Below, one piece after another: positions 2,899 through 50,015 of a stretch of DNA of 64,000 nt (the stretch's first letter is position 1; every line of letters starts with the position of its first letter). A program made the translations under genes and the position numbers. The notes below the pieces were generated by a model. That model had not been told where the DNA came from, did not search any database, and was given only the letters and a program-made list of their open reading frames with translations. The stretch is from Candidatus Moraniibacteriota bacterium (GTDB lineage: Bacteria; Patescibacteriota; Minisyncoccia; Moranbacterales; UBA1568). Where the stretch lies: positions 305,706-369,705 of the forward strand of contig CAVURJ010000002.1 of the NCBI GenBank assembly GCA_963743885.1, written 5' to 3'.

Positions 2899-3040
2899 AA
2901 TAACGGGTATTGAACTCCAGGGCAAGCCCTGGACCCAATCCCCCTCCGCCAGGGACGGAGGGTATTGCCCCGATTTTACCTGCGTTCCTCTCGGAAACGA
3001 GAGTTTACTCTCGTTTCACTCGCTACACTTGGTAATAAAT
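2899..3040 (+). repeat. copy A of repeated structured intergenic element (aataacgggtatt...cccgattttacctgc...covarying hairpin...ttggtaataaa), with ~60-nt hairpin-rich insert
   Basis: shares 5' and 3' blocks with copies at 14898-14987 and 47603-47760; stem aaacgagagt/actctcgttt. Confidence 0.55.
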
Positions 3041-13800: not shown

Positions 13801-14475
13801 GCAGGGAGTACTCTGACATCAGAAGGCAAAGGGCAATCAGTGACGAATACGGGGGAATGTACCGACAAAGCTGGCAACCAGGCCATACTAGCAACGGTAT
13901 CGGGCATCAATATCGACAAAACCGCCCCGGAAGCGAAGATATCCTTCAATCCGACCACGCAGAAGCTTGATATATCAGGAACAGACAATCTTTCAGATGT
14001 TTCCGTCACTCTCCTCGAAAAACAAGAACTGACGCCATCAAATAAGAAGGTGAAGAAGATCAAAGACTGGTTCTCAAAGTGGCACGGCAAGCACAAGAAG
14101 AATCTTCCAGATATGCTCGCTACTATCACGGACCAGGCTAGTCATACTACGAGTCTTTCTTTCGAGAAGCAAGAAAACAAAGGAAATGCCTTTGTTCGCC
14201 TTCTCTCTATAGAGTATGATGGAGAGGAAGAAAATATCCTGAGAAACGCCTCTCTCGGCTATACCTGGCGCATAGACCGGAAGGGCCAGTATTTGGACTT
14301 TTCTTCATCGCTGATTACGGAGGATATTCGTCTTTTTTCCACCTACCTCTCTAAGCAGGATCGGACACTTATCCTGGAGCAGGAGAGGCGCCATCTTCTT
14401 CGTTTGACGAGCGTTGATGGGATGACAGTGCCATATCTGGAGAGTGAGAAAGGAAAAATGAAATTTGAGTATTAA
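10834..14475 (+). CDS. large secreted LCAT/PGAP1-like lipase-domain protein with beta-helix-like N-region and C-terminal Ig-like/conserved module (paralog P1)
   Basis: signal peptide; YDWR motif; nucleophile elbow VAHSNGG (AHSxG lipase variant); DGDGTV acid motif; YSLDNGTTW...YRSIDKAGNQEE beta-sandwich motif; last ~330 aa ~85-95% nt-identical to 42900-43965. Confidence 0.75.
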   Translation: MRKNHVFFVSVFLVAFFCNSSIASAYYQDDDGRYIVNEDETWNKDNTYVFDHEVVVDMGAKLIIEPGTTISFRRDDNGDAVPFSVYDGQVQAIGTETEPIVFRREGDDGAFYINFDDGSNKTSVFKYVRFLEGGDAWYVDACTDCQQSLFEGFFVHRAMAAQQKAGTETLRYSYGKLLIENSVFSKSAFMDVWAQESGIGDIFDEDGKVIGKDPARLNISNSDFSGDTTVPALQVYDSHCPFADPNCLKKITFNNNWYSSPSGPNATSNSQGTGKQVIGAINLNGWSTSQFFCLENCHSSVMFLPGFEGSRLLEGSQQVWEPRANFDVERLYLDKGNNISVGGIIDEVNITPVTGIVNIYKTFVRRMDAMKNIDHLIKDWKPVAYDWRLSYDEILADASIENSLRDLALNSNTGKVTIVAHSNGGLLAKALMKKIGDADTAKLIDKVIFVAVPQVGTPEAIIGMLNGEKQEITPMMDERTARGLSENMPGAYQLLPSDEYFSVVQTPVVTFDISDSSDLKGRYGDKIESKGGLDDFLDDGHRRVSAIDDDIHTPSSLKGNLIDAAKNVHSSLDGWDAPDGVRVVQIAGWGVPSTTKGVEYFSEKKKHCDESLCTTADYLRLGDIDSTIDGDGTVVFPSALYMDGGAERYYVDLAGYNKSLDRISNLQLLGIDHKNILEIPELTSFIVDSVSKNLKPIADYDYLSTEIPDSDDENRIQYSLHSPLTLDLYDDQGRHTGVTADGIIEEKIPGTYYKQFGDVKFIFADESSSMHVSMSGYAAGTFTFSVKELHGDTELGEVVFKDMPTTSETEVTFDMPSDLAHAGDLHIDVDGDEAVDYQLQPKIGEVVTFGEKDEIAPTTTLSLFGTQGTNGWYTSDVTVTLSATDNDGGSDIEKKEYSLDNGTTWTAYADSFVVSTEGTMTLQYRSIDKAGNQEEMKTETVKIDKIKPIITGTALPAADANGWNTTDVEVRFVCTDSGVSQSGIETDMVAGSTLTSEGKGQSVTNTGECTDKAGNQAILATVSGINIDKTAPEAKISFNPTTQKLDISGTDNLSDVSVTLLEKQELTPSNKKVKKIKDWFSKWHGKHKKNLPDMLATITDQASHTTSLSFEKQENKGNAFVRLLSIEYDGEEENILRNASLGYTWRIDRKGQYLDFSSSLITEDIRLFSTYLSKQDRTLILEQERRHLLRLTSVDGMTVPYLESEKGKMKFEY

Positions 14476-14902: not shown

Positions 14903-14987
14903 CGGGTATTAACCCGATTTTACTGGCGCTCCGTTCGAAAACAAAAGTAAACTTTTGTTTCACTCACTACACTTGGTAATAGAAATT
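14898..14987 (+). repeat. copy B (minimal, ~90 nt) of repeated structured intergenic element, ending 1 nt before the PfkB kinase ATG
   Basis: cgggt-atta-acccg hairpin; covarying stem aaacaaaagt/acttttgttt; 3' ttggtaatagaaatt. Confidence 0.55.
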
Positions 14988-37086: not shown

Positions 37087-37372
37087 CCCGCACTATCTTT
37101 TTTCGGATATGTATTATGTGTATGTAATACAGAATGAGAAGGACGAGCTTTATTATGGCTTTACTTCCGATTTAAAAAAACGGATGCGAGAACATAATGA
37201 AGGAAGCACGTTTTCTACAAGAGGATTTTTGTGGCGTCTTGTCTATTACGAAGCGTATCTTTCGAAGAAAGATGCTATGACGAGAGAACGTAGCATGAAG
37301 CGATATGGCCAAGCGCTCGGGCATCTGAAGAATAGGATAAAGGCTTCATTAAAAGAAAAAAGATAGTGCGGG
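37087..37372. repeat. 17-bp perfect inverted repeat (cccgcactatctttttt / aaaaaagatagtgcggg) whose 252-nt loop is exactly a GIY-YIG ORF; looks like a terminator hairpin invaded by the gene
   Basis: left arm 37087-37103, right arm 37356-37372 (overlaps the ORF stop codon). Confidence 0.6.
37109..37366 (+). CDS. stand-alone GIY-YIG nuclease domain protein (85 aa)
   Basis: YYVYVIQNEKDELYYGFTSDLKKRMREHN matches GIY-(10)-YIG-T-DL-R-H core. Confidence 0.75.
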   Translation: MYYVYVIQNEKDELYYGFTSDLKKRMREHNEGSTFSTRGFLWRLVYYEAYLSKKDAMTRERSMKRYGQALGHLKNRIKASLKEKR

Positions 37373-37449
37373 ATTGCAAGAATAGCATTTTTGTGCTATA
37401 ATTAGTTGTTTGCAGTACCTTTTCATGACAGATCGGATCATCGCGCGAT

Positions 37450-37581
37450 CCCTCACATGAAATGACATGGCCAGTCCGCTGGCTCTTTAGGGACGATGTG
37501 TAAGTAAAAAAGCTATTACTTCGCACAAAACGTTCTCTTGGATGCAAACAAACAAGTTTGTTGTGTCATTTCATGTGAGGG
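37450..37581 (+). repeat. R1: ~130-nt element bounded by perfect 18-bp inverted repeats ccctcacatgaaatgaca / tgtcatttcatgtgaggg, inside RNase P RNA at the P2/P3 position
   Basis: direct repeat of 38007-38140. Confidence 0.6.
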
Positions 37582-38006
37582 AAGTGAGGAAAGTCCGGAC
37601 ACTCAGCCGCCGAAAGGCGGCACGGGTAGCAGGTAACGCCTGTCAGCCGATGCATGGCATCGGAAGTTCCAAGAGACAAGTTCCAAGAAACAAGGAATAT
37701 CCAATATTCAATGACCAATGATCAAGGCGGAGCAGTATTCCGAAATTGTGATTTGAGAGTTGGAGATTGTATCTTATTTGTATCTTGTAGCTTGAGGCTT
37801 GGTGATTCCGCTGCCATGCAGCGGCAGAGGTGCGAACAGTGACGCCGAAGCCGAAAGGCCGAGGATCCCTTCGGGGATAATTCCGTTGGAAGGCGGAAGT
37901 GAAACGGCTAAATCCTTACTTGGGTGCAAGGCCGCGTCTCGGCGTAAGCCGAGAAGAGCCGCAAAGATCTTCCTGGCGACAGGAAGGCAAGAGAAATGAT
38001 GGTCAT

Positions 38007-38140
38007 CCCTCACATGAAATGACATAGCCAGTCCGCTGGCTTCTTGAGGACCATTGTGTAAGCAGGCAGAATCAGCCATGTGCATGATGCGTTCTCTCGG
38101 ATGCAAACAAACAAGTTTGTTGTGTCATTTCATGTGAGGG
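38007..38140 (+). repeat. R2: second copy of the 18-bp-IR-bounded element, immediately 5' of the P4 3' strand
   Basis: 44-nt and 20-nt identical blocks with R1; central ~30 nt diverged. Confidence 0.6.
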
Positions 38141-38227
38141 AGACAGAATCCGGCTTATAGATCTGTCATGAAAAGGTATTAGAATAACAGGGTATAGGGG
38201 AAAGGGCTTAGGGTATAGTCAAAAAAT

Positions 38228-38285
38228 CTAAACCCTACTATCTATATCCTGTCCTCTAAACCCTATCCCCTAAACCCTAACCCCT
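38228..38285. repeat. short telomere-like CTAAACCCT/CCCTAA repeats with inverted TTAGGG-like partner upstream (38190-38225)
   Basis: tctaaaccctac...ctctaaaccctatcccctaaaccctaacccctg. Confidence 0.35.
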
Positions 38286-38292
38286 GTTTACA

Positions 38293-39723
38293 ATGAAGCG
38301 TTCCGAAATATTCTTCAGCGCTATTCAGGTGCCAGTCGATCTCATTGTGATTGTGCTGGCGGCTATTTCTGCGTATTACCTGCGCAGCTGGGAACCTGTC
38401 CGGCCGTTCTTGTCGCCGGTCTTCAATCTTTCTTTCGAGGATTATTTCCGTTTTGCGGCGACGGTCTCGCCGTTTTTCCTGCTCGTCTACGCGATCGAGG
38501 GGCTGTATACCATGCGTGTCACCCGCAGCTTCTGGCGCGAGGTATCGAGCATCTTCCGGGCGACGTCGCTCGGTCTCATTATCCTTATCATCGCGGTCTT
38601 TCTCAAGCGCGAATGGTTTTCTTCGCGTTTCGTCATTCTGGCAGGGTGGGGGTTGGCTGTGGCCTACGTCGTCTTCGCGCGCTATCTCATCCAGCGGGCC
38701 CAGAAGTGGTTCCTGGTGAATCGTGGTATTGGCGTCCATCGTGTCTTGCTCATCGGCTACAACGACAAGATGCGGCTGCTCCGCATGCGCCTCGACCATG
38801 ACAAGACGCTCGGCTACCGTGTGGTCGACCAAATTTCCGACGCCAGTCTGACGCACATCAAGGAGATCCGTCAGATGAAGGGTGTCGATGAGATCGTTGT
38901 GGGCGATCCGTCGCTTACCGATGATGAGCAGGAGAAGCTTTTCGATTTCTGCCAGATCAACAATGTCGCTTACAAATACTATCCGACGACGCTCCAGACG
39001 CAGCGTTTCTCTATGCGCATGTTCCAGGGCGAGCCGATCATCGAGTTCGAGCATACGCCGCTTGATGGCTGGGGCAAGGTGCTCAAGCGTGCCTATGACA
39101 TCGTCGCCGGCTTCGTCCTGACGGTGCTTTTTTCCCCGATCATGCTCGTCATCGCCATCCTCATCAAGCTTGAGGATCCGGATGGTCCGATCATCTACAA
39201 GAACGAGCGTATCGGCGAGAACGGCAAGAAATTCTTCGTCTACAAGTTCCGCTATATGCAGTGGAAGTATTGTGTCACCAAGGACAATCCGAAGATGAAA
39301 GAAGCAATCGCCTTCGAGAAAGAGCTCATCGCGAAGCACAATACCCGTGAAGGTGGTATCCTCTACAAGATCAAGGATGATCCGCGCAAGATGCGGGTCG
39401 GTGCGTTCATCGAGCGTTTCTCACTCGACGAGTTCCCGCAGTTCTTCAATGTCCTGAAGGGGGATATGAGCCTCGTGGGGCCGCGGCCGCACCAGGAGCG
39501 CGAAGTGGAGCTCTACAAAGAGTACCATCGCCGCCTCCTCACCATCAAGCCGGGCGTGACCGGTATGGCGCAGGTCTCCGGCCGCTCCGACCTCGCCTTC
39601 GAGGATGAGTACCGTCTCGACGTTTTCTACATCGAGAACTGGTCGCTTTGGCTTGATATCATCATCTGTTTCAAGACCGCCGGTGCGCTCCTCCGCCGCC
39701 GGAAGAATGGCCATGGGAAGTAG
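38293..39723 (+). CDS. polyprenyl-phosphate hexose-1-phosphate transferase (WbaP/EPS initiating sugar transferase family)
   Basis: N-terminal 4-5 TM, C-terminal 'bacterial sugar transferase' block KFRYMQ...DEFPQFFNVLKGDMSLVGPRP. Confidence 0.85.
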   Translation: MKRSEIFFSAIQVPVDLIVIVLAAISAYYLRSWEPVRPFLSPVFNLSFEDYFRFAATVSPFFLLVYAIEGLYTMRVTRSFWREVSSIFRATSLGLIILIIAVFLKREWFSSRFVILAGWGLAVAYVVFARYLIQRAQKWFLVNRGIGVHRVLLIGYNDKMRLLRMRLDHDKTLGYRVVDQISDASLTHIKEIRQMKGVDEIVVGDPSLTDDEQEKLFDFCQINNVAYKYYPTTLQTQRFSMRMFQGEPIIEFEHTPLDGWGKVLKRAYDIVAGFVLTVLFSPIMLVIAILIKLEDPDGPIIYKNERIGENGKKFFVYKFRYMQWKYCVTKDNPKMKEAIAFEKELIAKHNTREGGILYKIKDDPRKMRVGAFIERFSLDEFPQFFNVLKGDMSLVGPRPHQEREVELYKEYHRRLLTIKPGVTGMAQVSGRSDLAFEDEYRLDVFYIENWSLWLDIIICFKTAGALLRRRKNGHGK

Positions 39724-40047: not shown

Positions 40048-40395
40048 ATGTTGCTACTGAAATGGTTAGTCAGCACTCTTGCGTTCCTCGCGCTGCCACA
40101 CATCGTGCCGGGCATTTCAGTCGAGGGTTTCGGGACAGCGCTCGTCCTCGCACTCTTTTGGGGGCTTATGAATATCACGATCAAGCCGATCCTGACAATT
40201 CTCACGCTGCCAATCAATCTTCTTACCTTCGGTATCTTCACCTTCGTCGTCAACGGCTTCCTGCTCTGGCTCCTCGCGGGCATTATCAAGGGCTTCGCCG
40301 TGAAGGGCTTCTGGATCGCCGTCCTGGGTGGCCTGGTCCTCTCCGCCATCCACACGCTGACGCATTGGGCGCTCAGCCATCATCCAAGCGAATGA
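40048..40395 (+). CDS. DUF360 / phage-holin-4-like small membrane protein (YvlD-like)
   Basis: LPHIVPGISVEGFGTALVLALFWGLMNITIKPIL...FVVNGFLLWLLAGII pattern, 3-4 TM, 115 aa. Confidence 0.55.
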   Translation: MLLLKWLVSTLAFLALPHIVPGISVEGFGTALVLALFWGLMNITIKPILTILTLPINLLTFGIFTFVVNGFLLWLLAGIIKGFAVKGFWIAVLGGLVLSAIHTLTHWALSHHPSE

Positions 40396-40482
40396 TAAGC
40401 AAAACAAAGGTGTCAGGCGATTCGTCGCCCGGCACCTTTTTCTAAGAGGTCGTAAAAAATAATTAAAATAGCACATAAAATT

Positions 40483-40752
40483 ATGATTATATCTGGATCT
40501 GAAATTGATATAGTTATCACTTCTTTCGCGTATCTGTTTCTTTTGATTGTGGCAATAGCGTGGCTTGTAGTCTGTTTTCGTCGGGATAAACGTTACATCG
40601 GATTGTTGGGTGCCTCTATTCTTCTGAACGTGCTGTCTTTTCTATATTTTCTTGGGAAAACCCCATATTGGATCGGGTATTTTAATCTTTTTATATGGCC
40701 AGTTTTAAATATCGTCTTCGTTCTTAGATATTTTTTGCAGAAAAATAATTAA
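40483..40752 (+). CDS. hypothetical small membrane protein (89 aa), 13 nt upstream of paralog P2
   Basis: 2-3 hydrophobic segments; AT-rich. Confidence 0.4.
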   Translation: MIISGSEIDIVITSFAYLFLLIVAIAWLVVCFRRDKRYIGLLGASILLNVLSFLYFLGKTPYWIGYFNLFIWPVLNIVFVLRYFLQKNN

Positions 40753-40764
40753 GATGTTTGAAAT

Positions 40765-43700
40765 ATGCTCAAAAAAATAATTTTTGTAGCATTTATAATG
40801 GTGGTTCTTGTGGGAGCCGTCGTTCCTTTTTCTGTTGATTTTACGCTTCTTTATTCTTCAGCTGATGATGAATATACTGAGATTCTTGAGGATACTGAAT
40901 GGTCTGGCGAGATGACTATCGGTGGTTATGTTTGGATTGATCCAGAAGCTACACTAACCATAAAGAAAGGTTCCGTACTTATAATCAAGGGTGGAACTTT
41001 TTTTGATGTGAATGGGAAGATTTCTTTTGATGGGACAGTTAAGGATCCGGTGGTGATACGGAAAGAATCGTCTGGTTCAAACGAGGGATATTCGATCGCC
41101 GCTAATGGAGCTGGTCGTATAAATATTCGTAATGCTGATATAAGCGGTGGCGGTAGTGCAATAGATGCTGTTCTTGTAAAAAGGAAGCGATCCTTTTTAC
41201 AAACCGTATTTGCGACGATATTTTATTCTGGAGCAATCAGCGTTCATGATAGTGGATCGTTTGTCGCCGAAGGAGTGAATTTTCATGATAATACTGTCGC
41301 TGTCCATGTTGATCGAAATGAGTATTCTTATAATGATGATGTTGTCGTGAATCGGTCTAAGTTTTCGGACAATGTTTATGATGTAGTAAATGTCGATTCG
41401 GCGCAGTTTGATTTTCGATATAACTGGTGGGGTAATGTGTCTGGTCCGGAATCATGTTTGGATTCCGAGGAATGCGGGTCAAGACAGTTTAAAAAAATTA
41501 GAGGGGATGCGAATATCACTGACTGGGCAAAAGAAGAAGATTTCAGAGACCCAGTGATTATTGTACCTGGTATTGTCGGATCTACCATGAAAGATGGGAA
41601 ATTAGAGTTGGATCAAATACTCCATACCTACGATAATCTTTACGCGTCTTTCGTTGCTAATGGTTATCTACAAGAGAAGAATCTTTTTGTCTTTCCATAT
41701 GAATGGCGTGATAGCAATATAGATAACGCAGTGCTTCTTAAGGAAAAAATAGATGAAATAAAGCAATCCATGCATTGGCCAAAAGTTGATATCGTAGCTC
41801 ATTCTATGGGCGGGCTTTTGACAAGACAATATCTCGAGTCTGGTGGGTATCAACAGGATATTGATCAGCTGATAACAATAGGCACTCCGCAGAGGGGCTC
41901 TCCGGCGGCATATTTGACGTGGGGCGGCGGAAAAATCGGCCCGAGTTTTTCTGATATTATTGTGGGGCTTATTTTTGATCAAGAAGCCAGAAAGAATGGG
42001 TACAAGGATATATTTGATTACGTCAGGAATCGGCCCATACTTTCAGTTAAAGAACTTCTACCAGAATATAGCTATCTTCATGATGCGTTAAATAGTGACG
42101 AAACAAGGGTGTACCCATCCAATTATCCGAGAAATGAATTTCTTGAGAATCTCAATGTTTTACAAAATAAAGAACACTTGGATGATGTTGAATTTAGTAA
42201 AATTGTAGGTAATATAAGGGATAATAAAACCATTTCCGGTATACGAACCGTAAATAATGGAAATTATGCCATAGGAGAGCCATGGGAGCACGGATATCCG
42301 ATTGGATTCGAAATACCCGCTGGTGATAGGGGGTTGTTGTTTGGTGATGGAGACGGTACTGTTCCATTGGAATCAGCGAGGTATTTAGATGGAATTTATA
42401 ATATCGAACTTGATTCTAGTCATAGAAGCCTTCCTACGGATGCCCAGAGTGATGTTTTGAGTATTTTAACTGGAACATCGCCGGAAATTATTGTGGATAG
42501 GGGGATAGTGGAAGACATTCTTATCGCTCGTGCTTTTTCTCCTATTGATATCCAGATTATTTCTCCCTCAAAGAAAAGGATTGGTAAGAATTTTGAGACG
42601 GGAGGCGTATATGATGAGATTCCTGGTGCATATTACACCGGATACGATACGAAATCTGAGTTCATTACCATCCCTAATCCAGAAGATGGAGAATACAAGA
42701 TTTTGACTCGGGGGACGGACACTGGAAGCTATCGTATAGAAGTGGCTAAAATTGTTGAGGATGGAGATGGCAGCACGAAGGAGTCCGCAGTGTCATTCGC
42801 CGGAACGGCCGTTTTGGATGCGGAAGAGGAGACAGTCGTGATGGTTGAAGGTGATGAGGTATTTTCTGGCGGGATAAAAGATGAAACCGCTCCGATAACG
42901 ACAGCCTTGCTCTCTGGTACCCAAGGAACGAGCGGCTGGTATACGGGTGAGGTGATGGTGGCGTTCTCGGCTACGGACAATGATGGCGGCAGTGGCATCG
43001 ACAAAACTGAATACTCTCTCGATAACGGAGTAAATTGGATTGCATACGCCGACCCATTTACAATTTCGACCGAGGGCACAACGACCTTCCAATATCGTTC
43101 CATCGACGAAGCCGGTAATCAAGAAGAAGCGAAGACGGAAATCATTAAGATCGATAAAACTAAGCCGATTATCACGGGAACAACTCTTTCAGTGGCCGAT
43201 GCGAACGGATGGAATACTACTGATGTTGAGGTGCGTTTTACCTGTACCGACAGCGGACTGAGCCAGTCCGGTATCGAGACAGACACGGTGGCAGGTGGCA
43301 CTCTGACATCAGAAGGAAAAGGGCAATCATTGACGAATACAGGGGTATGTACTGACAAGGCAGGTAACCAGGCTGCTCCAACAACCGTATCGGGTATTAA
43401 TATCGACAAAGCCTCCCCTGAAGCGAAAATATCCTTCAATCCAACCACGCAGAAGCTTGATATATCAGGAACAGACAATCTTTCAGATGTTTCCGTCATC
43501 ATCCTCGAAAAACAAGAACTGACACCAGCAAACAAGAAAGTAAAGAAGATCAAAGACTGGTTCTCTCGTTGGCACAACAGGCATAAGAAGGACCTCCCAG
43601 ATATGCTTGCTACCATCACAGATCAATCTGGCCGCACTACAGCACTTTCTTTTGAGAAGCGGGAGAACAAAGGCAGTATCTTTGCCCACCTGCTTTCCTT

Positions 43701-43965
43701 GGAGTATGATGGAGGAGAGGAAAAGATCCTGAATGAAGCTTCCCTCGGCTACGCCTGGCATACGGATAAGAGAGGGCGCTACATTGATTTCTCCTCATCT
43801 CTCTCCGTAGAAGATTCCCGCCTCATGTCTACGTATCTTCAGAGGCAGGATAGAACAATCATTCTAGAGCAGGTGAGGCGTCGTCTTCCGAAACTGACAA
43901 GCGAGGAGGGGATGGTGGTGCCGTATATGGAGAGTCAGAAAGGAAGTATTGGTATAAAGCATTAA
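40765..43965 (+). CDS. large secreted LCAT/PGAP1-like lipase-domain protein (paralog P2) with conserved C-terminal module
   Basis: signal peptide; FPYEWRDS (DWR-type motif); VAHSMGG nucleophile elbow; GDGDGTVPLESA; YSLDNGVNW...YRSIDEAGNQEE; C-terminal ~330 aa near-identical to P1. Confidence 0.75.
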   Translation: MLKKIIFVAFIMVVLVGAVVPFSVDFTLLYSSADDEYTEILEDTEWSGEMTIGGYVWIDPEATLTIKKGSVLIIKGGTFFDVNGKISFDGTVKDPVVIRKESSGSNEGYSIAANGAGRINIRNADISGGGSAIDAVLVKRKRSFLQTVFATIFYSGAISVHDSGSFVAEGVNFHDNTVAVHVDRNEYSYNDDVVVNRSKFSDNVYDVVNVDSAQFDFRYNWWGNVSGPESCLDSEECGSRQFKKIRGDANITDWAKEEDFRDPVIIVPGIVGSTMKDGKLELDQILHTYDNLYASFVANGYLQEKNLFVFPYEWRDSNIDNAVLLKEKIDEIKQSMHWPKVDIVAHSMGGLLTRQYLESGGYQQDIDQLITIGTPQRGSPAAYLTWGGGKIGPSFSDIIVGLIFDQEARKNGYKDIFDYVRNRPILSVKELLPEYSYLHDALNSDETRVYPSNYPRNEFLENLNVLQNKEHLDDVEFSKIVGNIRDNKTISGIRTVNNGNYAIGEPWEHGYPIGFEIPAGDRGLLFGDGDGTVPLESARYLDGIYNIELDSSHRSLPTDAQSDVLSILTGTSPEIIVDRGIVEDILIARAFSPIDIQIISPSKKRIGKNFETGGVYDEIPGAYYTGYDTKSEFITIPNPEDGEYKILTRGTDTGSYRIEVAKIVEDGDGSTKESAVSFAGTAVLDAEEETVVMVEGDEVFSGGIKDETAPITTALLSGTQGTSGWYTGEVMVAFSATDNDGGSGIDKTEYSLDNGVNWIAYADPFTISTEGTTTFQYRSIDEAGNQEEAKTEIIKIDKTKPIITGTTLSVADANGWNTTDVEVRFTCTDSGLSQSGIETDTVAGGTLTSEGKGQSLTNTGVCTDKAGNQAAPTTVSGINIDKASPEAKISFNPTTQKLDISGTDNLSDVSVIILEKQELTPANKKVKKIKDWFSRWHNRHKKDLPDMLATITDQSGRTTALSFEKRENKGSIFAHLLSLEYDGGEEKILNEASLGYAWHTDKRGRYIDFSSSLSVEDSRLMSTYLQRQDRTIILEQVRRRLPKLTSEEGMVVPYMESQKGSIGIKH

Positions 43966-43992
43966 AAGTAAGAAGATTAATTTAAAAAAAGT

Positions 43993-44355
43993 ATGAGAAA
44001 AAATATATTTTTATTAGTGATGTTTGTTTGTGGACTGATTGGTATGGGAATTGATTATTTTAATTTAATAAATTTCCATTTAGGAGATGTGCTGTCGAAT
44101 ATCTCATTTTCTTTGATCGTAACTTCCATCATCATTTTTATTGGAAATGATTTGATGTTCCATTTCTGGCTCAAGTTTTTCTGTTGGTGGTTTGTGATCT
44201 CTGTGGTTTTTATTTTCATTTCTCCTGCGGGTATAGGTGGATTTTTTCCATCCATGTTTACAAAAGAGCTTGTTTCTTTGTGGGTGGGTATAGTCCTCGT
44301 TCTGATGAGCCTTTTCATGATTATTCGAGAATCTTATAAGTCTCGTAAACAGTAG
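43993..44355 (+). CDS. small polytopic membrane protein (type B partner, 120 aa)
   Basis: 4 hydrophobic helices, C-terminal basic tail; 28 nt after P2. Confidence 0.5.
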   Translation: MRKNIFLLVMFVCGLIGMGIDYFNLINFHLGDVLSNISFSLIVTSIIIFIGNDLMFHFWLKFFCWWFVISVVFIFISPAGIGGFFPSMFTKELVSLWVGIVLVLMSLFMIIRESYKSRKQ

Positions 44356-44365
44356 GATGAAAAAC

Positions 44366-44396
44366 CAAAACAAGGGCTTAAGTCCTTGTTTTTTTA
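44366..44396 (+). terminator. cassette-boundary terminator aaacaagggc-ttaa-gtccttgtttttt
   Basis: stem + T-run; related to hairpins at 46112 and 46805. Confidence 0.55.
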
Positions 44397-45014
44397 TGTA
44401 CCGATAAAGCTGGCAACCAGGCCGTACCAGCGACTGTGTCGGGTATCAACATTGATAAAATCGCTCCAGAAGCCAAAATATCCTTCAATCCAACCACGCA
44501 GAAACTCGATATATCCGGCATGGATAATCTCTCGGATGTTTCCGTTGTTACTATCGACAAGCCCGAGATGAATTCTTCAAACAAGAAGGTGAAGAAAATC
44601 AAGGACTGGTTCTCCGTCTGGCATGGTAGGCACAAGAAGAACCTTCCAGATATGCTTGCTACCATCACAGACCAGGCTGGCCATACTACAGCACTTTCTT
44701 TTGAGAAGCGGGAGAACAAAGTCAGTATCTTTGTCCGCCTGCTTTCCTTGGAGTATGATGGAGGAGAGGAAAAGAGCCTGAAGGATGCTTCTCTCGGTTA
44801 TGCCTGGCATACGGATAAGAGAGGGCGCTACATTGATTTCTTCTCATCTCTCTCCGTAGAAGATTCCCGTCTCATATCCACGTATCTTCAGAGGCAGGAT
44901 AGGACAATCATTTTGGAGCAGGTGAGGCGTCATCTTCCGAAACTAATAAGCGAGGAGGGGATGATGGTGCCGTATATGGAGAGTAATGCAGGAGAGGCGG
45001 AGATAAAGTATTAA
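44397..45014 (+). pseudogene. orphan C-terminal cassette F1: last ~205 codons of the P1/P2 lipase genes, begins abruptly after a terminator in the CTDKAGNQA motif, no ATG start (track ORF uses GTG at 44436)
   Basis: ~93-95% nt identity to 43350-43965; upstream end more P1-like (tgtaccgacaaagctggcaaccaggcc). Confidence 0.6.
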
Positions 45015-45057
45015 ATAGAATAAAAAGTTTAAATCAAAAAGAGTATGACAAAAAAAT

Positions 45058-45456
45058 GTGTTTTTGTTGTCACTTGCTTATATTTTGTATGTTGTAGTGC
45101 TCATGGTTATAAGCGCGAATTGTACGGTATCTCATGGCTGGTGCAATATTCGTGAGGATGACCCATTTGGTATGATAATCTTTATTTTCATGCCGTTCCT
45201 TCCGATGTTTTTCCTTTCCCTCATCACTTACAAAATGAAAGAAGAGGCCTTCCAGGCTTGGTTTCGCTTCGCTCTCTGGTTCGTGCCGATTATTATGGTT
45301 ATGATGTATCTCCTGAATGGATCGGGACAAAGTGGAATGGGGATTAGTGGGGCGGTTTCTCGCTCATTCGATTTTCTTGTTATCAGTATCTTCTACGTTA
45401 TTTTTATTGTAGTCTCTCTAATCAGGGTCGCTCTTGCGTACAAGCGGGCAAGGTAG
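45058..45456 (+). CDS. small polytopic membrane protein (type A partner; SLITYKMKEEAFQAWFRF motif); start uncertain (GTG 45058 or ATG 45103)
   Basis: homologous to 14492 and 46429 proteins. Confidence 0.5.
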   Translation: MFLLSLAYILYVVVLMVISANCTVSHGWCNIREDDPFGMIIFIFMPFLPMFFLSLITYKMKEEAFQAWFRFALWFVPIIMVMMYLLNGSGQSGMGISGAVSRSFDFLVISIFYVIFIVVSLIRVALAYKRAR

Positions 45457-45464
45457 AATTAGGA

Positions 45465-45490
45465 AACCAGGGGATTTCCCCTGGTTTTTT
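45465..45490 (+). terminator. terminator aaaccagggg-attt-cccctggtttttt
   Basis: 9-bp perfect stem + T-run. Confidence 0.55.
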
Positions 45491-45499
45491 AATAGAGTC

Positions 45500-45685
45500 T
45501 ATCTTGATACAGAGCTCCGTCTCAAGGAAAAATCTAGATTGAAAGCGGAGTATCGGAAACAGAAGAATGAGACAAAGATAACGGAGAAGGATAAGGAAGA
45601 AAAGACAAAGACCGTAATAACAAGGTCGGGTTTGGTGTCTGTCAATGTAGAGACGAAGGCGGGGGATATAATTTGGGGATATTAA
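45500..45685 (+). pseudogene. possible degenerate tail cassette F2 (no ATG; ends ...VSVNVETKAGDIIWGY)
   Basis: position in array and weak tail resemblance (xESxxGxxxIxY); low confidence. Confidence 0.25.
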
Positions 45686-45705
45686 ATAATATTATTGAAA
45701 TTTTT

Positions 45706-46104
45706 ATGTTTAAAAAAATATTTGGAAGCGTAATTCTATCGTCTTGGGTGTATATTTTTTGGGCGCTTTCTTTGAGGAATGATTATCCATCGGCTTGCAT
45801 CCCAATCGGTATTCAGGAATTGACGAATATATGCGAGGCCACAGCACAGTATCTGCTTGTCTTTGTGCCGATGGGTGTATTTTTTGTGATATTAGCTATT
45901 TGGAATAATGAGATATATAAAAAATGGGAGAAGTTCACACTTATATTTTTAGGATTATATTTTATTATATTTTTTGTGCTTACCCCAACGGACGCTCCTG
46001 ATTTTGTTCCTTTTTATAAGGAAACAGTGGCTATTTGGGGAATGATACTGTATGCAGTAATATCTATGGTGCATATAGCGTACCTGAAATTAAAGAAGAT
46101 CTGA
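45706..46104 (+). CDS. small polytopic membrane protein (type C, 132 aa from first ATG; track ORF begins at TTG 45673)
   Basis: K-rich N-terminus then 4 TM helices. Confidence 0.45.
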   Translation: MFKKIFGSVILSSWVYIFWALSLRNDYPSACIPIGIQELTNICEATAQYLLVFVPMGVFFVILAIWNNEIYKKWEKFTLIFLGLYFIIFFVLTPTDAPDFVPFYKETVAIWGMILYAVISMVHIAYLKLKKI

Positions 46105-46111
46105 AATTTTA

Positions 46112-46140
46112 AAACAAGGGCACCGCGGCCCTTGTTTTGG
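46112..46140 (+). terminator. cassette-boundary hairpin aaacaagggc-accgcg-gcccttgttttgg
   Basis: same stem as 46805 hairpin. Confidence 0.5.
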
Positions 46141-46193
46141 TATATACTGAAAGTAAATCCCACTATATCCCAAGGAAAGATGAGACCTGGATC

Positions 46194-46376
46194 ATGGAGA
46201 AGTCCGAAACATTGAAGGATGACGACCAGGATGAAGAAAATAGGTGTGGCCATGACGAGAACGATAGATGCGGCGATGAGCATGAAGACAATGGTCGGCC
46301 AGTCAGAGTGAAACTTCCTGGTATGGTAATTCCGTATTTGGAGAGTGTTAAAGGGAGTGTGGGGATAAAATACTAA
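46194..46376 (+). pseudogene. orphan tail cassette F3: acidic 60-aa ORF ending PGMVIPYLESVKGSVGIKY (C-terminal 20 aa of P2)
   Basis: tail identity with P2 (GMVVPYMESQKGSIGIKH); upstream part unrelated and acidic. Confidence 0.4.
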
Positions 46377-46428
46377 ATAATAAAGCTAAATTTAATAATA
46401 TGTCGACAAAAAAAATATACTAGTATTT

Positions 46429-46797
46429 TTGGGAGTTTTGGTACTAGCTGCTCTTTTTTCTACAGAAGAGTTGCAGTTTTGTTGGTTTATCGGATTAAGG
46501 GAATGCCCTATTCACTTGGATGATTCTCAGGAGTCGCTATTTTTTCCATTTATTGTAATGTTTTTTCTTTCCCTCATCACCTACAAAATGAAAGATGAAG
46601 TCTTTCAAGCTTGGTTTCGTTTCGCTCTTTGGTTTGTGCCGATCATCATGTTTTTCCAGTTCGTCTTCATGAATTCTAGCGGCGGAGGAAGCATCGGAAA
46701 CAATGACTTCGCCATTTTCTTCACCTCGCTTTTCTATATCGCTTTCGTCCTCGTCTCTCTCATCAAGATCGTCCGGGCGTACAAGCGGACGAGATAG
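46429..46797 (+). CDS. small polytopic membrane protein (type A partner; SLITYKMKDEVFQAWFRF motif); TTG start in track, true start uncertain
   Basis: 76% identical segment to 45058 protein. Confidence 0.5.
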   Translation: MGVLVLAALFSTEELQFCWFIGLRECPIHLDDSQESLFFPFIVMFFLSLITYKMKDEVFQAWFRFALWFVPIIMFFQFVFMNSSGGGSIGNNDFAIFFTSLFYIAFVLVSLIKIVRAYKRTR

Positions 46798-46804
46798 AAT
46801 CAGA

Positions 46805-46834
46805 AAACAAGGGCTGTGGCCCTTGTTTTTTTGT
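46805..46834 (+). terminator. cassette-boundary terminator aaaacaagggc-tgtg-gcccttgttttttt
   Basis: stem + T-run. Confidence 0.55.
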
Positions 46835-46983
46835 TGGGGAGATAGGCAGGCCGGGCGCTTTTTGGATAGCGAGACCACCAGATGCGGGCTTGATGGATGC
46901 GGGGTTTTGTGATATAATATACGCAATGTTCTTTTTTGGCAGAAACGCTGTTTTTTCGGATTTTCCAGAAGGAGGGTAGGGAA

Positions 46984-47442
46984 ATGGAGGCAGAAATGGA
47001 GAAATGCCGCGTACTCGTGGTTCTGGGCAGCTATGGCGTCTTGCCGTTCAATCAGCTGACCGAAGAAGCGCTGCGTCGTCTCGAACGAGCACTTCAACTC
47101 TGGATGAGCGGGGAATATTCGTATTTGCTCCTCTCTGGTGGCATCGTCGCGGATTGGTCGGAACAGACCAAGTCGGAAGCGGAGCTCATGCAGGAGTGGC
47201 TCCAGAACCGGCTGGTAGCCGATGGCCGCATGATCATTGAGTCGTGCGGCACCAATGAGATCAAGAGCGTCATCCATGCGGTCAGGCTCCTCTGGAAGCG
47301 GGTCATCACTGATGCGGAGATCACGATCATCGGTGAGCTGCCGGGCGCCGTCATGTGCAAGGATACCTTCATTGCCAACGGGTTTGGTCCCGTGCGCTGT
47401 GAATTCGTCGCCGCTGACGAGGATATCGCCGCCTGCGCCTGA
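46984..47442 (+). CDS. DUF218 (YdcF/ElyC-like) domain protein
   Basis: VLVVLGSYG...LLSGGIVADWSEQTKSEAELMQEWL...ESCGTNE pattern; annotated from first ATG (track starts at TTG 46936). Confidence 0.55.
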   Translation: MEAEMEKCRVLVVLGSYGVLPFNQLTEEALRRLERALQLWMSGEYSYLLLSGGIVADWSEQTKSEAELMQEWLQNRLVADGRMIIESCGTNEIKSVIHAVRLLWKRVITDAEITIIGELPGAVMCKDTFIANGFGPVRCEFVAADEDIAACA

Positions 47443-47602
47443 TCGGAATCAGCGTCACACATCAAGCCCCGTCTTGCACAAGCATCACAGGGCTTTTTTC
47501 TTTGGGAAAATTCCCCGAGTACGAGCGCCTGTAGCACTATTTTTGTGCGGTCGTCATAAAATAGTGATATTGGGGGGGGTGATAGTATGGATTTTTGGGG
47601 AA

Positions 47603-47760
47603 AATAACGGGTATTCACCCCAGGGCAAGCCCTGGACCAAAAAACGAACTGATGTTCGTTTTGTTCTGCGGCAAGCCGCGGGGTATTTGACCCGATTTTA
47701 CCTGCACTCGCTCGAAAACGAAAGTGTACTTTCGTTTTACTCGCTTCGTTTGGTAATAAA
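47603..47760 (+). repeat. copy C of repeated structured element (with ~70-nt hairpin-rich insert)
   Basis: aataacgggtatt...gacccgattttacctgcactcgctcgaaaacgaaagtgtactttcgttttactcgcttcgtttggtaataaa. Confidence 0.55.
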
Positions 47761-48035
47761 ATCCCCGCCTAACGATGTTGAGTGTTACCTCTTGGCCGGG
47801 ATTTCGAATCAAGTATACGACGGTTTAGAACAAAGGGAAAGCCTATATGGTATATGAAAATGGCTGGAAATAGGGTGAATGTGGAGTTGCTCGGACTTTC
47901 TTAGTCTTGGTCACCCCGCCGAAGCGGGGATCAGTGGGTTTCCCCAAATGTACCTGTATTATAGCAGGAAATGCGGTTGTGTCAGTAGAGTAGAAAGCAG
48001 TTATTCAAAAATTTCGAATAACTGCTTCTGATGGG

Positions 48036-48077
48036 AAGTCGAAGTGAAACGTTCCACTTATTTCGTTTGGTAATAAA
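48036..48077 (+). repeat. copy D (degenerate 3' portion) of the repeated element
   Basis: tcgaagtgaaacgttccacttatttcgtttggtaataaag. Confidence 0.35.
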
Positions 48078-48079
48078 GA

Positions 48080-48127
48080 AACATGTACACTTTTCGCAAT
48101 TGCGAAAAGTGTACATGTTGTTTTTTT
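48080..48127 (+). terminator. very strong intrinsic terminator (20-bp perfect palindrome aacatgtacacttttcgcaa/ttgcgaaaagtgtacatgtt + tttttttt) with no protein gene within 600 nt upstream
   Basis: perfect stem and 8-T run. Confidence 0.6.
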
Positions 48128-48404
48128 GAATATTAGGCGTATATAAAAATATTTTTTCTTTGAAAGGCCTGTTTTTATTTATCTTTGTAACCTTTCCTAA
48201 TATGTGGCCGGGAGTGGTAGAATTTTCTTGCGGGGGTAGTCTGTGGAATTAAAAAAGCCTCTCGCTTTAACGAGACGCCACTTGGTATCCCAACGCGAGA
48301 GGTCTTACTTCTCGTTTCAGAGTACGCCAGAGTATGTTTATCGTCAATATTGCATGTGTATGACGCAGTGAGTACGTCTTGGTTCCTGTATTAAAAAAAA
48401 GCCT

Positions 48405-49166
48405 ATGTCAGAAGAAGAGAAAAAATTGACCCTAGAGGATTACAAGCAAATCTGGACGAAGTTCTGTTTTCTTGATGAATCAGGAAGTTTGAGCGCAAAG
48501 CAGCAGCCGATTTTTACGGTTGGAATCTTGAAGCTTACCCAGCCGTACTATCTGTATAATAAGATCCAGTATGAGCGCTCTGTGCGGCATTTTTATGATG
48601 AGATGAAGTTCAATCTACTTGGTAAGAAGAATATAGATTTTGCAAAATTTGTCATAGAATCGGTCTTGGAAACGAAGAGCTTGGCCTTTTATTCGTATTC
48701 TCTCGATAAGGATGGTGAATATTTTCATCGGACGTTCGGGACTGATCCGTGGCAGGCATATGAGGATATCTCGATTCGTCTGCTGGATTCGGCTCTTGCT
48801 CCGAATGAGATACTTATTCTTATCGCTGATCATGTCACGACGCCAAAAAACATCAGGTATGAAGTATCGGTGAAGAAGAGAGTGAATGATAAACATAGAA
48901 GGCTATCCCTGGCTGGCGTCTGCCGGTTTGATTCGCGAGGGAACGATCTTCTCCAGGTAACTGATTTGCTTATCGGTTTAGTCAACTATGATTTGAAAAT
49001 GGAATATGGACTTGTCGATACTCCATCGAAGTATAAAAAGGAACTCGTTGATTTTTTCAAGAAACAGCTTGGGGTGAGCAGTTTTTGTGACGGATTCCGT
49101 AACCGGACGTTCAATATCTTTGTCGATAAAGATAGCCGAAAAAGGCGGTGTCAATCTAGTAGCTAG
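48405..49166 (+). CDS. DUF3800-family protein, isolated in AT-rich segment
   Basis: N-terminal FCFLDESGS motif and C-terminal LQVTDLLIGLV motif characteristic of DUF3800. Confidence 0.55.
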   Translation: MSEEEKKLTLEDYKQIWTKFCFLDESGSLSAKQQPIFTVGILKLTQPYYLYNKIQYERSVRHFYDEMKFNLLGKKNIDFAKFVIESVLETKSLAFYSYSLDKDGEYFHRTFGTDPWQAYEDISIRLLDSALAPNEILILIADHVTTPKNIRYEVSVKKRVNDKHRRLSLAGVCRFDSRGNDLLQVTDLLIGLVNYDLKMEYGLVDTPSKYKKELVDFFKKQLGVSSFCDGFRNRTFNIFVDKDSRKRRCQSSS

Positions 49167-49352
49167 GCATAAAAAAAGAAAGAGGGCTATCGTCCAAACG
49201 GTCGACGCCCTCTTTCAAATACTGCAAGCGAATTATACACCCGAAGAATGAATGTGTCAATAGGTGTGAAAATGGCCGAAAATGCGGTAGAATAGAGGAA
49301 ATCGAAGAAAAGTGATAATCGGCTTTAGGGGAGGTTTTTGAAATATTCTGGC

Positions 49353-50015
49353 ATGCATACCCAGTTGCGGCGTTTCTACGTCACCAAGGTCAAAAAATAC
49401 GTCCCCAAGGGGCTGTTTTTGGCATACAACGCCCTGAAGGAGCGGCTGCATATCAAGTTTCCGGAAAGTGCCTTGGCGCATGAGTATCTGGATGGGCTCC
49501 AGGGCCTGGAAATAGGCGGATCGGCGCACAATCCTTTCGGTCTGGATACCCGGAATGTCGATTATACCGTCGAAGAGAACCAGTACAAGAAGCTTGAGAA
49601 AAAATTCATGGGTGAAGCGCTCAAAGTGGATATCGTGGCGCCGGGCGATGCTATCCCGCTTGCGGATGGGAGCCAGGACTTCGTCATCAGCGCACACGTC
49701 ATCGAACATTTTCCTGATCCGATCAAGGCGCTCAAGGAATGGTACCGTCTCATCCGTCCGGGTGGGTATATTTTCATGATCGTCCCGCACAAGGAACGCA
49801 CCTTCGACAAGGATGAGCCGAGGACGACGCTTCAGGAGCTCATCGATCGCCACGAGGGCAGGATCGTCCCGCAGCCGAACAAGAATGATCATCATTCCGT
49901 CTGGATCACTGAGGATATGGTCGAGCTCATGAAATATCTCGGCTGGGAAATCGTCAGAGTAGAAGAGAAGGACGACAAGGTCGGCAACGGTTTCACGGTC
50001 ATCATACGGAAGTAG
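49353..50015 (+). CDS. class I SAM-dependent methyltransferase
   Basis: LEIGGSAHNPFG (motif I-like), DFVISAHVIEHFPDPIKALKEWYRLIRPGGYIFMIVP. Confidence 0.75.
   Translation: MHTQLRRFYVTKVKKYVPKGLFLAYNALKERLHIKFPESALAHEYLDGLQGLEIGGSAHNPFGLDTRNVDYTVEENQYKKLEKKFMGEALKVDIVAPGDAIPLADGSQDFVISAHVIEHFPDPIKALKEWYRLIRPGGYIFMIVPHKERTFDKDEPRTTLQELIDRHEGRIVPQPNKNDHHSVWITEDMVELMKYLGWEIVRVEEKDDKVGNGFTVIIRK

Follow-up and report, generated by a model that had tools for sequence, protein, structure and literature searches.

Gene conversion from silent cassettes is known to bring about surface variation in the Neisseria pilE/pilS and Borrelia vlsE systems. Toxin-immunity arrays such as tspA-tsaI and essD-esaG are similar to the locus of the lipase toxin TslA. 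The latter belongs to the T7SS (type VII secretion system) of Staphylococcus aureus and is accompanied by variable, multi-copy TilA immunity genes (PMC10730906). Orphan toxin-immunity modules are further described for the Rhs and CdiA polymorphic toxin systems, e.g., the rhs orphan of Salmonella (PMC3967940). Here we describe a locus on a 64,000-nucleotide stretch of contig CAVURJ010000002.1 (referred to as the window), derived from a metagenome-assembled genome (MAG) of a Candidatus Moraniibacteriota bacterium. The lipase gene FULL, which appears to be the expressed copy and whose product is predicted to be exported in a Sec-dependent manner, is followed there by a small membrane-protein gene (TM1) and then by three start-less fragments of lipase 3' ends (F1, F2 and F3), each of them accompanied by a further small membrane-protein gene (TM2, TM3 and TM4).

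As an explanation for this arrangement we favour the serial replacement of the lipase 3' end together with its partner gene, which would have left behind a maintained reserve of cassettes like the orphan modules of Rhs/CdiA; we regard this explanation as evenly balanced between right and wrong. Bacteria of the candidate phyla radiation (CPR, Patescibacteria) live attached to other cells and, to our knowledge, cannot make their own lipids. This makes the phospholipase-like enzymes that they export prime candidates for attacking hosts or harvesting lipids. All related sequences compared in this work, designated by L numbers where they have to be told apart, are of metagenomic origin.

Architecture of the array and its membrane partner family

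An initial annotation of the locus, made from the letters alone, had described the order of a full-length lipase gene, a membrane-protein gene and a hairpin, followed by three units of tail fragment, membrane-protein gene and hairpin. This order was borne out by Hidden Markov Model (HMM) searches, by folding and by a second assembly (Table 1). Two Logan contigs of run ERR12035942, which may be the window's own source sample, contain the orders FULL end-TM1-F1 and F1 end-TM2-F2-TM3-F3, identical to that of the window, and a protein identical to TM1 is encoded between the FULL end and F1. An artefact of one assembler is therefore unlikely. That the array consists of collapsed repeats, a concern already raised with the initial annotation, or of chimeric ones is hardly credible after this check. 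In favour of it are the MAG origin of the sequence and the repetitiveness of the region, with a guanine plus cytosine (GC) content of 0.40-0.45 across 40.0-46.9 kb as compared to 0.52-0.57 in the flanks; against it, the junctions obtained by Logan are identical, similar arrays occur in unrelated samples and the copies are not collapsible because they are 16-40% diverged. Exact-protein look-ups with FULL and the annotated F1 product yielded no further strain contigs.

Table 1. Features of the lipase array and of the paralogous lipase locus in the window
Feature	Position	Strand	Basis or remark
PF04020 (Phage_holin_4_2, formerly DUF360) 4-TM (four transmembrane segments) protein gene	40048-40395	+	Pfam E 2e-30
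89-amino-acid small 3-TM protein gene, directly 5' of FULL	40483-40752	+	tblastn, hydropathy
FULL, 1066-amino-acid LCAT/PLA2-like lipase gene, predicted export	40765-43965	+	Pfam, PDB relatives
TM1, 120-amino-acid 4-helix membrane protein, divergent partner-family member	43993-44355	+	family HMM E 1.1e-26
Hairpin 1 with T-run, terminator-like, module-specific motif	44367-44392	+	folding
F1, start-less copy of the lipase gene's last 206 codons	44397-45014	+	C-terminal-domain HMM E 1.3e-78
TM2, partner-family gene, ATG 45045 out of frame	45045-45456	+	body 45058-45456, from GTG 45058
Hairpin 2 with T-run	45458-45493	+	-23.5 kcal/mol, z -5.7
F2, 61-codon start-less tail fragment, distinct F2 type	45500-45685	+	tail HMM E 0.017
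TM3, intact partner-family gene, 132 amino acids	45706-46104	+	HMM E 1.3e-38
Hairpin 3	46109-46140	+	hairpin-F3 junction identical in L024
F3, start-less tail fragment, ~76 codons, common type with acidic insert	46137-46376	+	HMM E 2.8e-18
TM4, partner-family gene, ATG 46400 out of frame	46400-46797	+	body 46429-46797, from TTG 46429
Hairpin 4 with T-run, array end	46798-46835	+	folding
P1, paralogous 1213-amino-acid lipase, 30 kb 5' of the FULL locus	10834-14475	+	
TMP1, partner-family gene of P1	14492-14902	+	HMM E 4e-42
F2-type leader	window 45508-45552; L004 1586-1630, 2173-2217; L034 255-300; L036 860-905		

FULL possesses an N-terminal hydrophobic signal or anchor segment (hydropathy), which is the sole export feature found on the protein, and no secretion-system genes were detected among the large open reading frames (ORFs) scanned within about 10 kb. 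Amino acids 260-470 constitute an LCAT/PGAP1-type alpha/beta-hydrolase region (Pfam LCAT, E 1.8e-16) with the nucleophile motif AHSMGG; among solved structures, group XV phospholipase A2, the best relative in the PDB, and LipA from Bacillus are nearest. An OmpL47-type barrel (amino acids 726-796) follows, and the C-terminus is composed of a beta-rich domain of ~200 amino acids and a conserved tail (..KLPGMVVPYxESxKGxIxIKY). The lipase as the only recognisable enzyme domain is thus located in the non-variable N-terminal part, outside the exchanged C-terminus. In the BLASTP/HHpred-type comparison that had been proposed, which was run with Pfam, NCBIfam and PDB, the lipase domain was recognised and neither the C-terminal domain with its tail nor the partner proteins found a match. 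Scans of tail and partners with Pfam, NCBIfam and PADLOC gave nothing meaningful, and the AlphaFold2 (AF2) model of the tail was of low confidence and matched generic beta-sheet structures only. The C-terminal domain, for which a profile was built from 19 full-length genes, is rare, being present in six proteins among 5.8 billion and at 9 and 13 loci in genome and metagenome scans, respectively. The 3' third of FULL shares 76-87% of its nucleotides with P1, and orthologues of TMP1 were found 3' of P1-type lipases at L005, L006, L009 and L019.

The small proteins had been described initially as having three to four transmembrane segments. Four hydrophobic helices and a single family were found, and no known family could be assigned: all five small proteins of the window match one HMM (E 1e-26 to 1e-43), for which no further copies were detected in the 64 kb and which corresponds to no Pfam or NCBIfam model. 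With E<=1e-3 the family comprises 1363 clusters among 1.84 billion representatives. Common to its members are a first outer loop that contains Cys and a conserved core, SLITYKMKDEVFQAWFRF; the divergent TM1, too, has four hydrophobic segments by hydropathy. The AF2 model contains four helices with a pLDDT (predicted local distance difference test) value of 72.5, and a Foldseek search of this model against the PDB gave no match. Judged from their sequences, the partner family and the C-terminal domain with its tail represent two undescribed protein families. Two proteins, P0015 and P0042, contain two partner copies fused in tandem within one ORF (271-276 amino acids), in line with frequent recombination of neighbouring copies.

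In nearly all loci the lipase gene is directly followed by one member of the partner family. Conversely, loci found by means of the partner family (L025, L026-28, L030/31, L036 and L038) carry an LCAT-like gene or tail immediately 5', so that an occurrence of the membrane proteins apart from lipases, which would have spoken for an accidental association, was not observed where upstream sequence is available. At L026 the LCAT-like gene ends in a C-terminal transmembrane anchor in place of the tail and the partner gene still follows; the linkage is therefore to the lipase as such.

Two partner genes of the array have disrupted starts. The ATG of TM2 is out of frame with the gene body at a run of seven adenines (A7), and that of TM4 at a run of eight (A8), whereby the first helix of TM4 is lost. 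The N-terminus of TM2 is intact in TMa of L004, and TM4 orthologues are intact at L001, L004 and L034. TM1 (A6) and TM3 (A7) are in frame at their respective runs, and a change of one base would restore the frame of TM2 or TM4. The frameshifts could represent decay, a homopolymer sequencing error or on/off switching by slipped strands.

The three tail fragments differ in type and length. F1 is preceded by an in-frame stop codon at 44379-81 and has no ATG. It is 83.7% identical to FULL over 618 nucleotides and not ~95% over the last 600, as had been stated initially, and the identity is unevenly distributed (75.3% for nucleotides 1-255, 92.5% for nucleotides 256-588 and 57% for the last 30); the reported proximity of its 5' edge to P1 holds, though the preference is slight (79% versus 75% to FULL). 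F2 matches the tail HMM weakly. As its protein sequence is 72-85% identical to fragments at L004 and L034 and, at L036, to the terminal part of a longer ORF, i.e., in three other assemblies, it is a genuine tail type of its own. The F2-type tail of L036 closes an ORF running off the contig start. F2 had been described initially as a start-less 3' fragment of the lipase gene with its own membrane-protein gene; its tail belongs to a distinct type. F3, formerly limited to the last 20 codons (46194-46376), is homologous over ~76 codons to a common tail form with an acidic insert that is also seen in other genomes. The last ~20 residues are kept in all tail types, in agreement with the conserved tail end noticed before. 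Elsewhere in the source genome there may be expressed copies that end in F2- or F3-type tails.

The description of the fragments as lacking promoters and ATG codons proved accurate. A promoter scan of the array gave weak matches only, and neither a conserved start codon nor a conserved ribosome-binding site for the fragments was found across genomes; at the fragment start position the window has GTC/TAT, L004 ATT or ATC and L034 GTG. The 5' leader of F2-type fragments, coding for TELRLKEKSRLKAEY, shows nucleotide-level conservation across genomes and is joined to a common-type tail at L036 and to an expressed-type tail in the L004 fragment Fa. The leader may be a preferred crossover segment.

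Each membrane-protein gene of the array is followed by a stable hairpin and a T-run (-12.8 to -23.5 kcal/mol, z -2.9 to -5.7), with the short G+C stems preceding T-runs that are typical of terminators. The motif AACAAGGG..CCTTGTT occurs within the 64 kb at three array sites only, with zero occurrences expected by chance, which agrees with the earlier notion that related hairpins bound the modules. The hairpins are absent from the L004 array, and Rfam has no match in the window at gathering thresholds.

Recurrence, mosaicism and purifying selection

The suggested search of related genomes for the module revealed comparable stacks in at least five other CPR loci (L004, L024, L034/35, L036 and L038/37). 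L004, from another Moranbacteria MAG, comprises six membrane-protein genes or their remnants and five tail fragments. Its segment TM2 end-F2-TM3 is collinear with positions 45333-46096 of the window at 72% nucleotide identity, and the next gene matches TM4 (75%); the L004 counterpart of TM3, likewise located after an F2-type fragment, is 66% identical with a ratio of nonsynonymous to synonymous substitution rates (dN/dS) of 0.18. Some of the L004 membrane-protein genes are truncated or internally deleted, and fragments of 12-37 codons are joined at microhomologies (e.g., AGAAAGA). At L034/35 the window order is found as well, with F2, an extra membrane-protein gene, a TM3-like gene, a common-type fragment and a TM4-like gene. 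At L036 the longer ORF with F2-type tail is followed by a membrane-protein gene, a hairpin, a fragment and another membrane-protein gene, and even the much more distant lineage of L038/37 shows the order lipase, membrane-protein gene, short tail fragment, membrane-protein gene.

L024 stems from a close relative. Its block of hairpin 3 and F3 is ~91% identical to the window with the same 5' junction, and it is the best-conserved piece between the two; it is flanked on both sides by different membrane-protein genes, and two extra ones are present. The content of the array therefore turns over between close strains, while its overall order is old, and the lack of polymorphism that would have weakened the initial reading is not what was found. 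Non-identical partner genes in varying copy number beside a predicted secreted phospholipase occur in the window as well as at L004, L024 and L034. The contigs of L005, L006 and L007, which contain the lipase and partner module, are third party annotation (TPA) assemblies titled "uncultured Bdellovibrionales bacterium", and all other related contigs are titled Moraniibacteriota. These labels are probably a binning or taxonomy error, or otherwise a sign of transfer.

Comparison of the paralogous 3' ends revealed mosaic sequences, in which the 3' region of P1 takes part in exchange with FULL and F1. Within the first 255 nucleotides of the C-terminal domain FULL is nearest to P1 (85.5%) and F1 is 75-79% identical to both, whereas in the next 333 nucleotides F1 and FULL share 92.5% and P1 only 68-70% with either. 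Synonymous differences between F1 and FULL are saturated in the first 85 codons (proportion of synonymous differences, pS, 0.75) and reach a dS of 0.19 in the next 120. This uneven divergence (Fisher p 1e-8) argues for a recent exchange between F1 and FULL of a tract of ~330 nucleotides (about 44652-44984), which ends ~30 nucleotides 5' of the stop codon and leaves the partner gene outside. A mosaic like that of F1 and FULL is displayed by the L001 and L004 lipases, two paralogs of the MAG GCA_016182385.1. The identity within their domain is mostly 82-98% (80-98% in 60-nucleotide windows), breaks down at the tail's acidic linker and is regained in the last codons, and their partner genes are of low identity except for the conserved core. 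The L004 fragment Fa combines an F2-type 5' part with a 3' part near-identical to the expressed tail. Between paralogs the acidic linker of the tail and, in the partner, the N-terminal helix, the first outer (Cys) loop and the loop that connects helices 3 and 4 are most variable. According to the positive-inside rule the variable partner loops, as well as the linker, would lie outside the cell.

The scan of large ORFs within about 10 kb yielded no integrase, transposase or reverse transcriptase, so general recombination is the likely agent. An origin as integron or mobile element was rejected on the same grounds and in view of the terminator-like hairpins. A retro-copy origin, conceivable for units that are 5'-truncated and end in a terminator, is without support from a reverse transcriptase and is retained as a remote idea only.

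The start-less fragments are under purifying selection at the protein level, as measured on fragments that share one truncation point. For F3 of the window and L024, dS is 0.33, dN 0.03 and the ratio of nonsynonymous to synonymous proportions (pN/pS) 0.11 (p 4e-6); all pairs of F2-type fragments from the window, L004 and L034, together with the long ORF of L036, gave pN/pS values of 0.12-0.18 (p<1e-9). When substitutions were placed at random, none of 20000 simulations matched the observed conservation of amino acids, and the simulated fragments stayed free of stop codons in 12-42% of simulations only, whereas none of the fragments detected by tail HMM or tblastn contains an internal stop. The orphan membrane-protein genes are constrained as well, with a dN/dS of 0.18 for TM3 (as given above) and a pN/pS of about 0.16 for TM4. 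A fusion of the fragments to the upstream membrane-protein gene by frameshift or read-through was considered and rejected: the frame offset is +1 in the window and -1 at L004, which excludes a common frameshift or read-through, and hairpins intervene.

Genes and repeats around the array

The array adjoins the edge of a surface-polysaccharide gene cluster, with a gene for a priming sugar transferase (38293-39723) on its 5' side and genes for a methyltransferase, a flippase and glycosyltransferases from 49338 on. Orthologues of the PF04020 gene (65-77% identity) lie beside lipase genes at L001, L007, L008, L010, L013, L016, L019 and L022; the lipase module is constantly accompanied by this gene, which is located 5' in the window and 3' in the other genomes. 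Homologues of the 3-TM gene were detected by tblastn just 5' of the lipase at L010 (33%) and L012 (39%), and small genes of 86 and 94 amino acids hold its position at L025 and L030, which on this evidence makes it a conserved 5' companion of FULL-type lipases. For both genes a functional link to the lipase, e.g., in export or membrane handling, is possible.

Next to the array, positions 46840-49317 of the window (~2.5 kb) are absent from the close relative L024, where the sequence ~30 nucleotides past the last array hairpin (2245-2266), the homologue of hairpin 4, matches window positions 49317-49399 with 94%. This segment includes a DUF218 gene (46936-47442), a copy of a 78-nucleotide repeat and a perfect 18-bp palindromic hairpin (48080-48119). 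A DUF3800 gene (48405-49166) matches the candidate defence family PDC-M04A of PADLOC (E 1e-16). The copies of the 78-nucleotide repeat (2960-3037, 14904-14981 and 47681-47758) are 69-81% identical and the pairing of their inner hairpin is kept by compensatory changes (GAAACGAGAG/CUCUCGUUUC, AAAACAAAAG/CUUUUGUUUC and AAAACGAAAG/CUUUCGUUUU). One copy begins 2 nucleotides past the TMP1 stop codon, where the array modules carry their terminator hairpin. Rfam has no match for the repeat, which may represent a CPR-specific terminator-like or REP-like (repetitive extragenic palindromic) element or a small RNA.

Further upstream, the intergenic region 37400-38250, bounded by a GIY-YIG gene (37109-37366) and by the sugar transferase gene, contains direct repeats (37448-37582 and 38005-38141, 88-98% identical) and matches to bacterial RNase P class A that score 22.8 and 17.4 bits, short of the gathering score of 100. 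Either an RNase P RNA in divergent or reduced form or an unrelated repeat element may be located in this region.

Possible origin of the cassettes and comparison with known systems

The conserved order, the ongoing conversion and the constraint at the protein level argue for a maintained reserve and not for debris. The unit of serial replacement would be a two-gene module typical of Moranbacteria-like CPR, consisting of the exported lipase and a small four-helix membrane partner. Homologous or illegitimate recombination would repeatedly rebuild the lipase 3' end together with partner gene and terminator, and each replacement would push the prior 3' end, partner and hairpin downstream, from which F1-TM2, F2-TM3 and F3-TM4 could have arisen. 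The orphans would constitute a reserve of alternative tail and partner alleles, and recombination may periodically return them to the expressed gene, in which they would be exposed to selection. The partner would bind the exported lipase, or hold it, at the membrane of the producing cell itself, and extra intact partner genes would add breadth. We infer that it is probably a docking or a self-protection (immunity-like) protein. An immunity-like role is favoured by the near-constant position behind the lipase and by the intact, constrained extra copies, a docking role by the invariant tail end (..PGMVVPYxESxKGxIxIKY) and the conserved partner core; the two roles are compatible. As to the pairing of tails and partners, the combinations F2-TM3 and common-tail-TM4 recur in 2-3 genomes, and a Mantel test with 25 modules yielded a positive tail-partner correlation (r 0.49, p 2e-4) that does not clearly exceed the phylogenetic control.

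Several observations weigh against the serial replacement with a maintained reserve. The joining of an orphan to the expressed gene is postulated and not observed, and F2 and F3 have diverged from FULL at the nucleotide level too far for easy homologous exchange. A strict pairing of tail and partner finds no clear support: FULL and F1 share one tail type although their partners are very different (18% identity between TM1 and TM2), and F2-type tails are found ahead of TM3-type genes in two genomes and ahead of TMe-type ones in another two. For full-length genes the Mantel correlation is 0.44 and not clearly above the value of 0.34 for the upstream-domain control. Moreover, the partner family is not represented within 10 kb of the FULL-type orthologues of L007 and L010, the disrupted starts of TM2 and TM4 in the window genome indicate that some decay is ongoing, and the hairpins between the modules would limit expression by read-through.

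A cassette switching in CPR, by which start-less modules of tail and partner, retained in their order over long evolutionary periods, would be recombined into the expressed lipase gene so that the presumably surface-exposed acidic tail linker and the outer loops of the partner are changed together, is a tentative possibility. If true, an enzyme for host contact or lipid harvest would be varied by a system that combines two genes, and the purifying selection on fragments devoid of promoter and ATG would thereby be explained. Rather unlikely, in our view, is a classical toxin-immunity locus with an antibacterial or host-attacking phospholipase, an array of immunity proteins in the membrane, which would protect against variant lipases of neighbours, and fragments that are mere scars of homology left when recombination introduced each immunity gene. 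It would account for the excess of partner genes over fragments (five to one at L024, six genes or remnants to five at L004), for the mostly intact and constrained state of the orphan partner genes and for the L026 partner behind an anchored LCAT-like gene, which links the partner with the lipase rather than with the tail. There is also a precedent in TslA/TilA, a secreted antibacterial lipase with variable multi-copy immunity genes (PMC10730906). Yet pN/pS values of 0.1-0.2 are unexpected for scars, the lipases of L007 and L010 would be left without a nearby immunity gene, two of the three orphan partner genes in the window have disrupted starts, and family scans and Foldseek linked the partners to no known immunity family.

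Alternatively, the fragments might themselves be translated, by an unconventional start or by re-initiation, as tail peptides of 60-80 amino acids acting with the adjacent membrane protein. The constraint exists without an upstream gene body, F3-type fragments keep a conserved internal Met (WIMEK), gene callers predict ORFs of 48-64 amino acids and the block of hairpin and F3 is the best-conserved one between the window and L024. This explanation is nevertheless improbable: start codon and ribosome-binding site are not conserved across genomes, the frame relative to the upstream gene varies between genomes and the Met of F3 is inherited from the full-length protein. Very improbable is finally that fragments and extra membrane-protein genes are inert pseudogene debris of tandem duplication and subsequent deletion. 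Missing starts and promoters, the frameshifted starts of TM2 and TM4 and the truncated or internally deleted genes and microhomology-joined 12-37-codon fragments of L004 would be expected of debris, but not an order conserved across genomes at about 72% nucleotide identity, strong purifying selection and the absence of stops and frameshifts in the detected fragments; the shared junctions argue against independent recent truncations of expressed genes.

In the literature searched, no description of the module, the small membrane family or orphan cassettes in CPR was found. The locus defines a widespread, unannotated membrane family (>1300 clusters) that is genetically tied to lipases, and it gives, within this literature, the first indication of orphan-cassette dynamics in CPR, comprising recombination, turnover between strains and selection on silent fragments. 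It offers a handle on the means by which ultra-small epibionts protect or vary the machinery at their surface, and the strong purifying selection on start-less fragments stands as an unexplained feature.

Of the two analogies drawn initially, orphan C-terminal toxin-immunity modules and silent conversion cassettes, both proved relevant, while membership of the locus in either group was not supported. From an integron array it differs by the lack of an integrase in the scanned large ORFs and by hairpins that are terminator-like and, at L004, absent. With pilE/pilS and vlsE the locus shares one expressed gene beside promoter-less, open-reading and constrained partial copies that would not be expressed in place, and evidence of a conversion tract between a cassette (F1) and the expressed gene. 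In contrast to pilS and vls, each cassette adds a whole second gene and a terminator, the cassettes number three to six, the older ones are far diverged from the expressed copy and switching at the population level is postulated. Like TslA/TilA it combines a secreted phospholipase-A-type enzyme, with an N-terminal catalytic domain and a non-catalytic C-terminal module, with arrays of non-identical small partner genes in strain-variable copy number. However, T7SS, LXG-like domain and Lap partners are missing, the partners are polytopic membrane proteins instead of DUF576 lipoproteins, the arrays also hold fragments of the enzyme gene, and an immunity role is assigned by analogy.

The closest resemblance is to the orphan modules of polymorphic toxin systems of the Rhs/CdiA/MafB type, although the differences are considerable. 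The exchanged part is a tail of ~60-200 codons with no recognisable toxin domain and with invariant last ~20 residues, and the enzyme domain resides in the constant N-terminal part. Export from this CPR bacterium is predicted to be Sec-dependent, the linked gene codes for a membrane protein with four helices that belongs to a new family, and the cognacy of tail and partner may not be strict. Common to both are a full-length exported gene followed by 5'-truncated, start-less 3' copies, each with a small downstream gene, mosaic sequences, the lack of a dedicated recombinase, and orphans whose expression could, in principle, be regained through recombination with the main gene. The principle of orphan modules would thereby be extended beyond the classical toxin systems.

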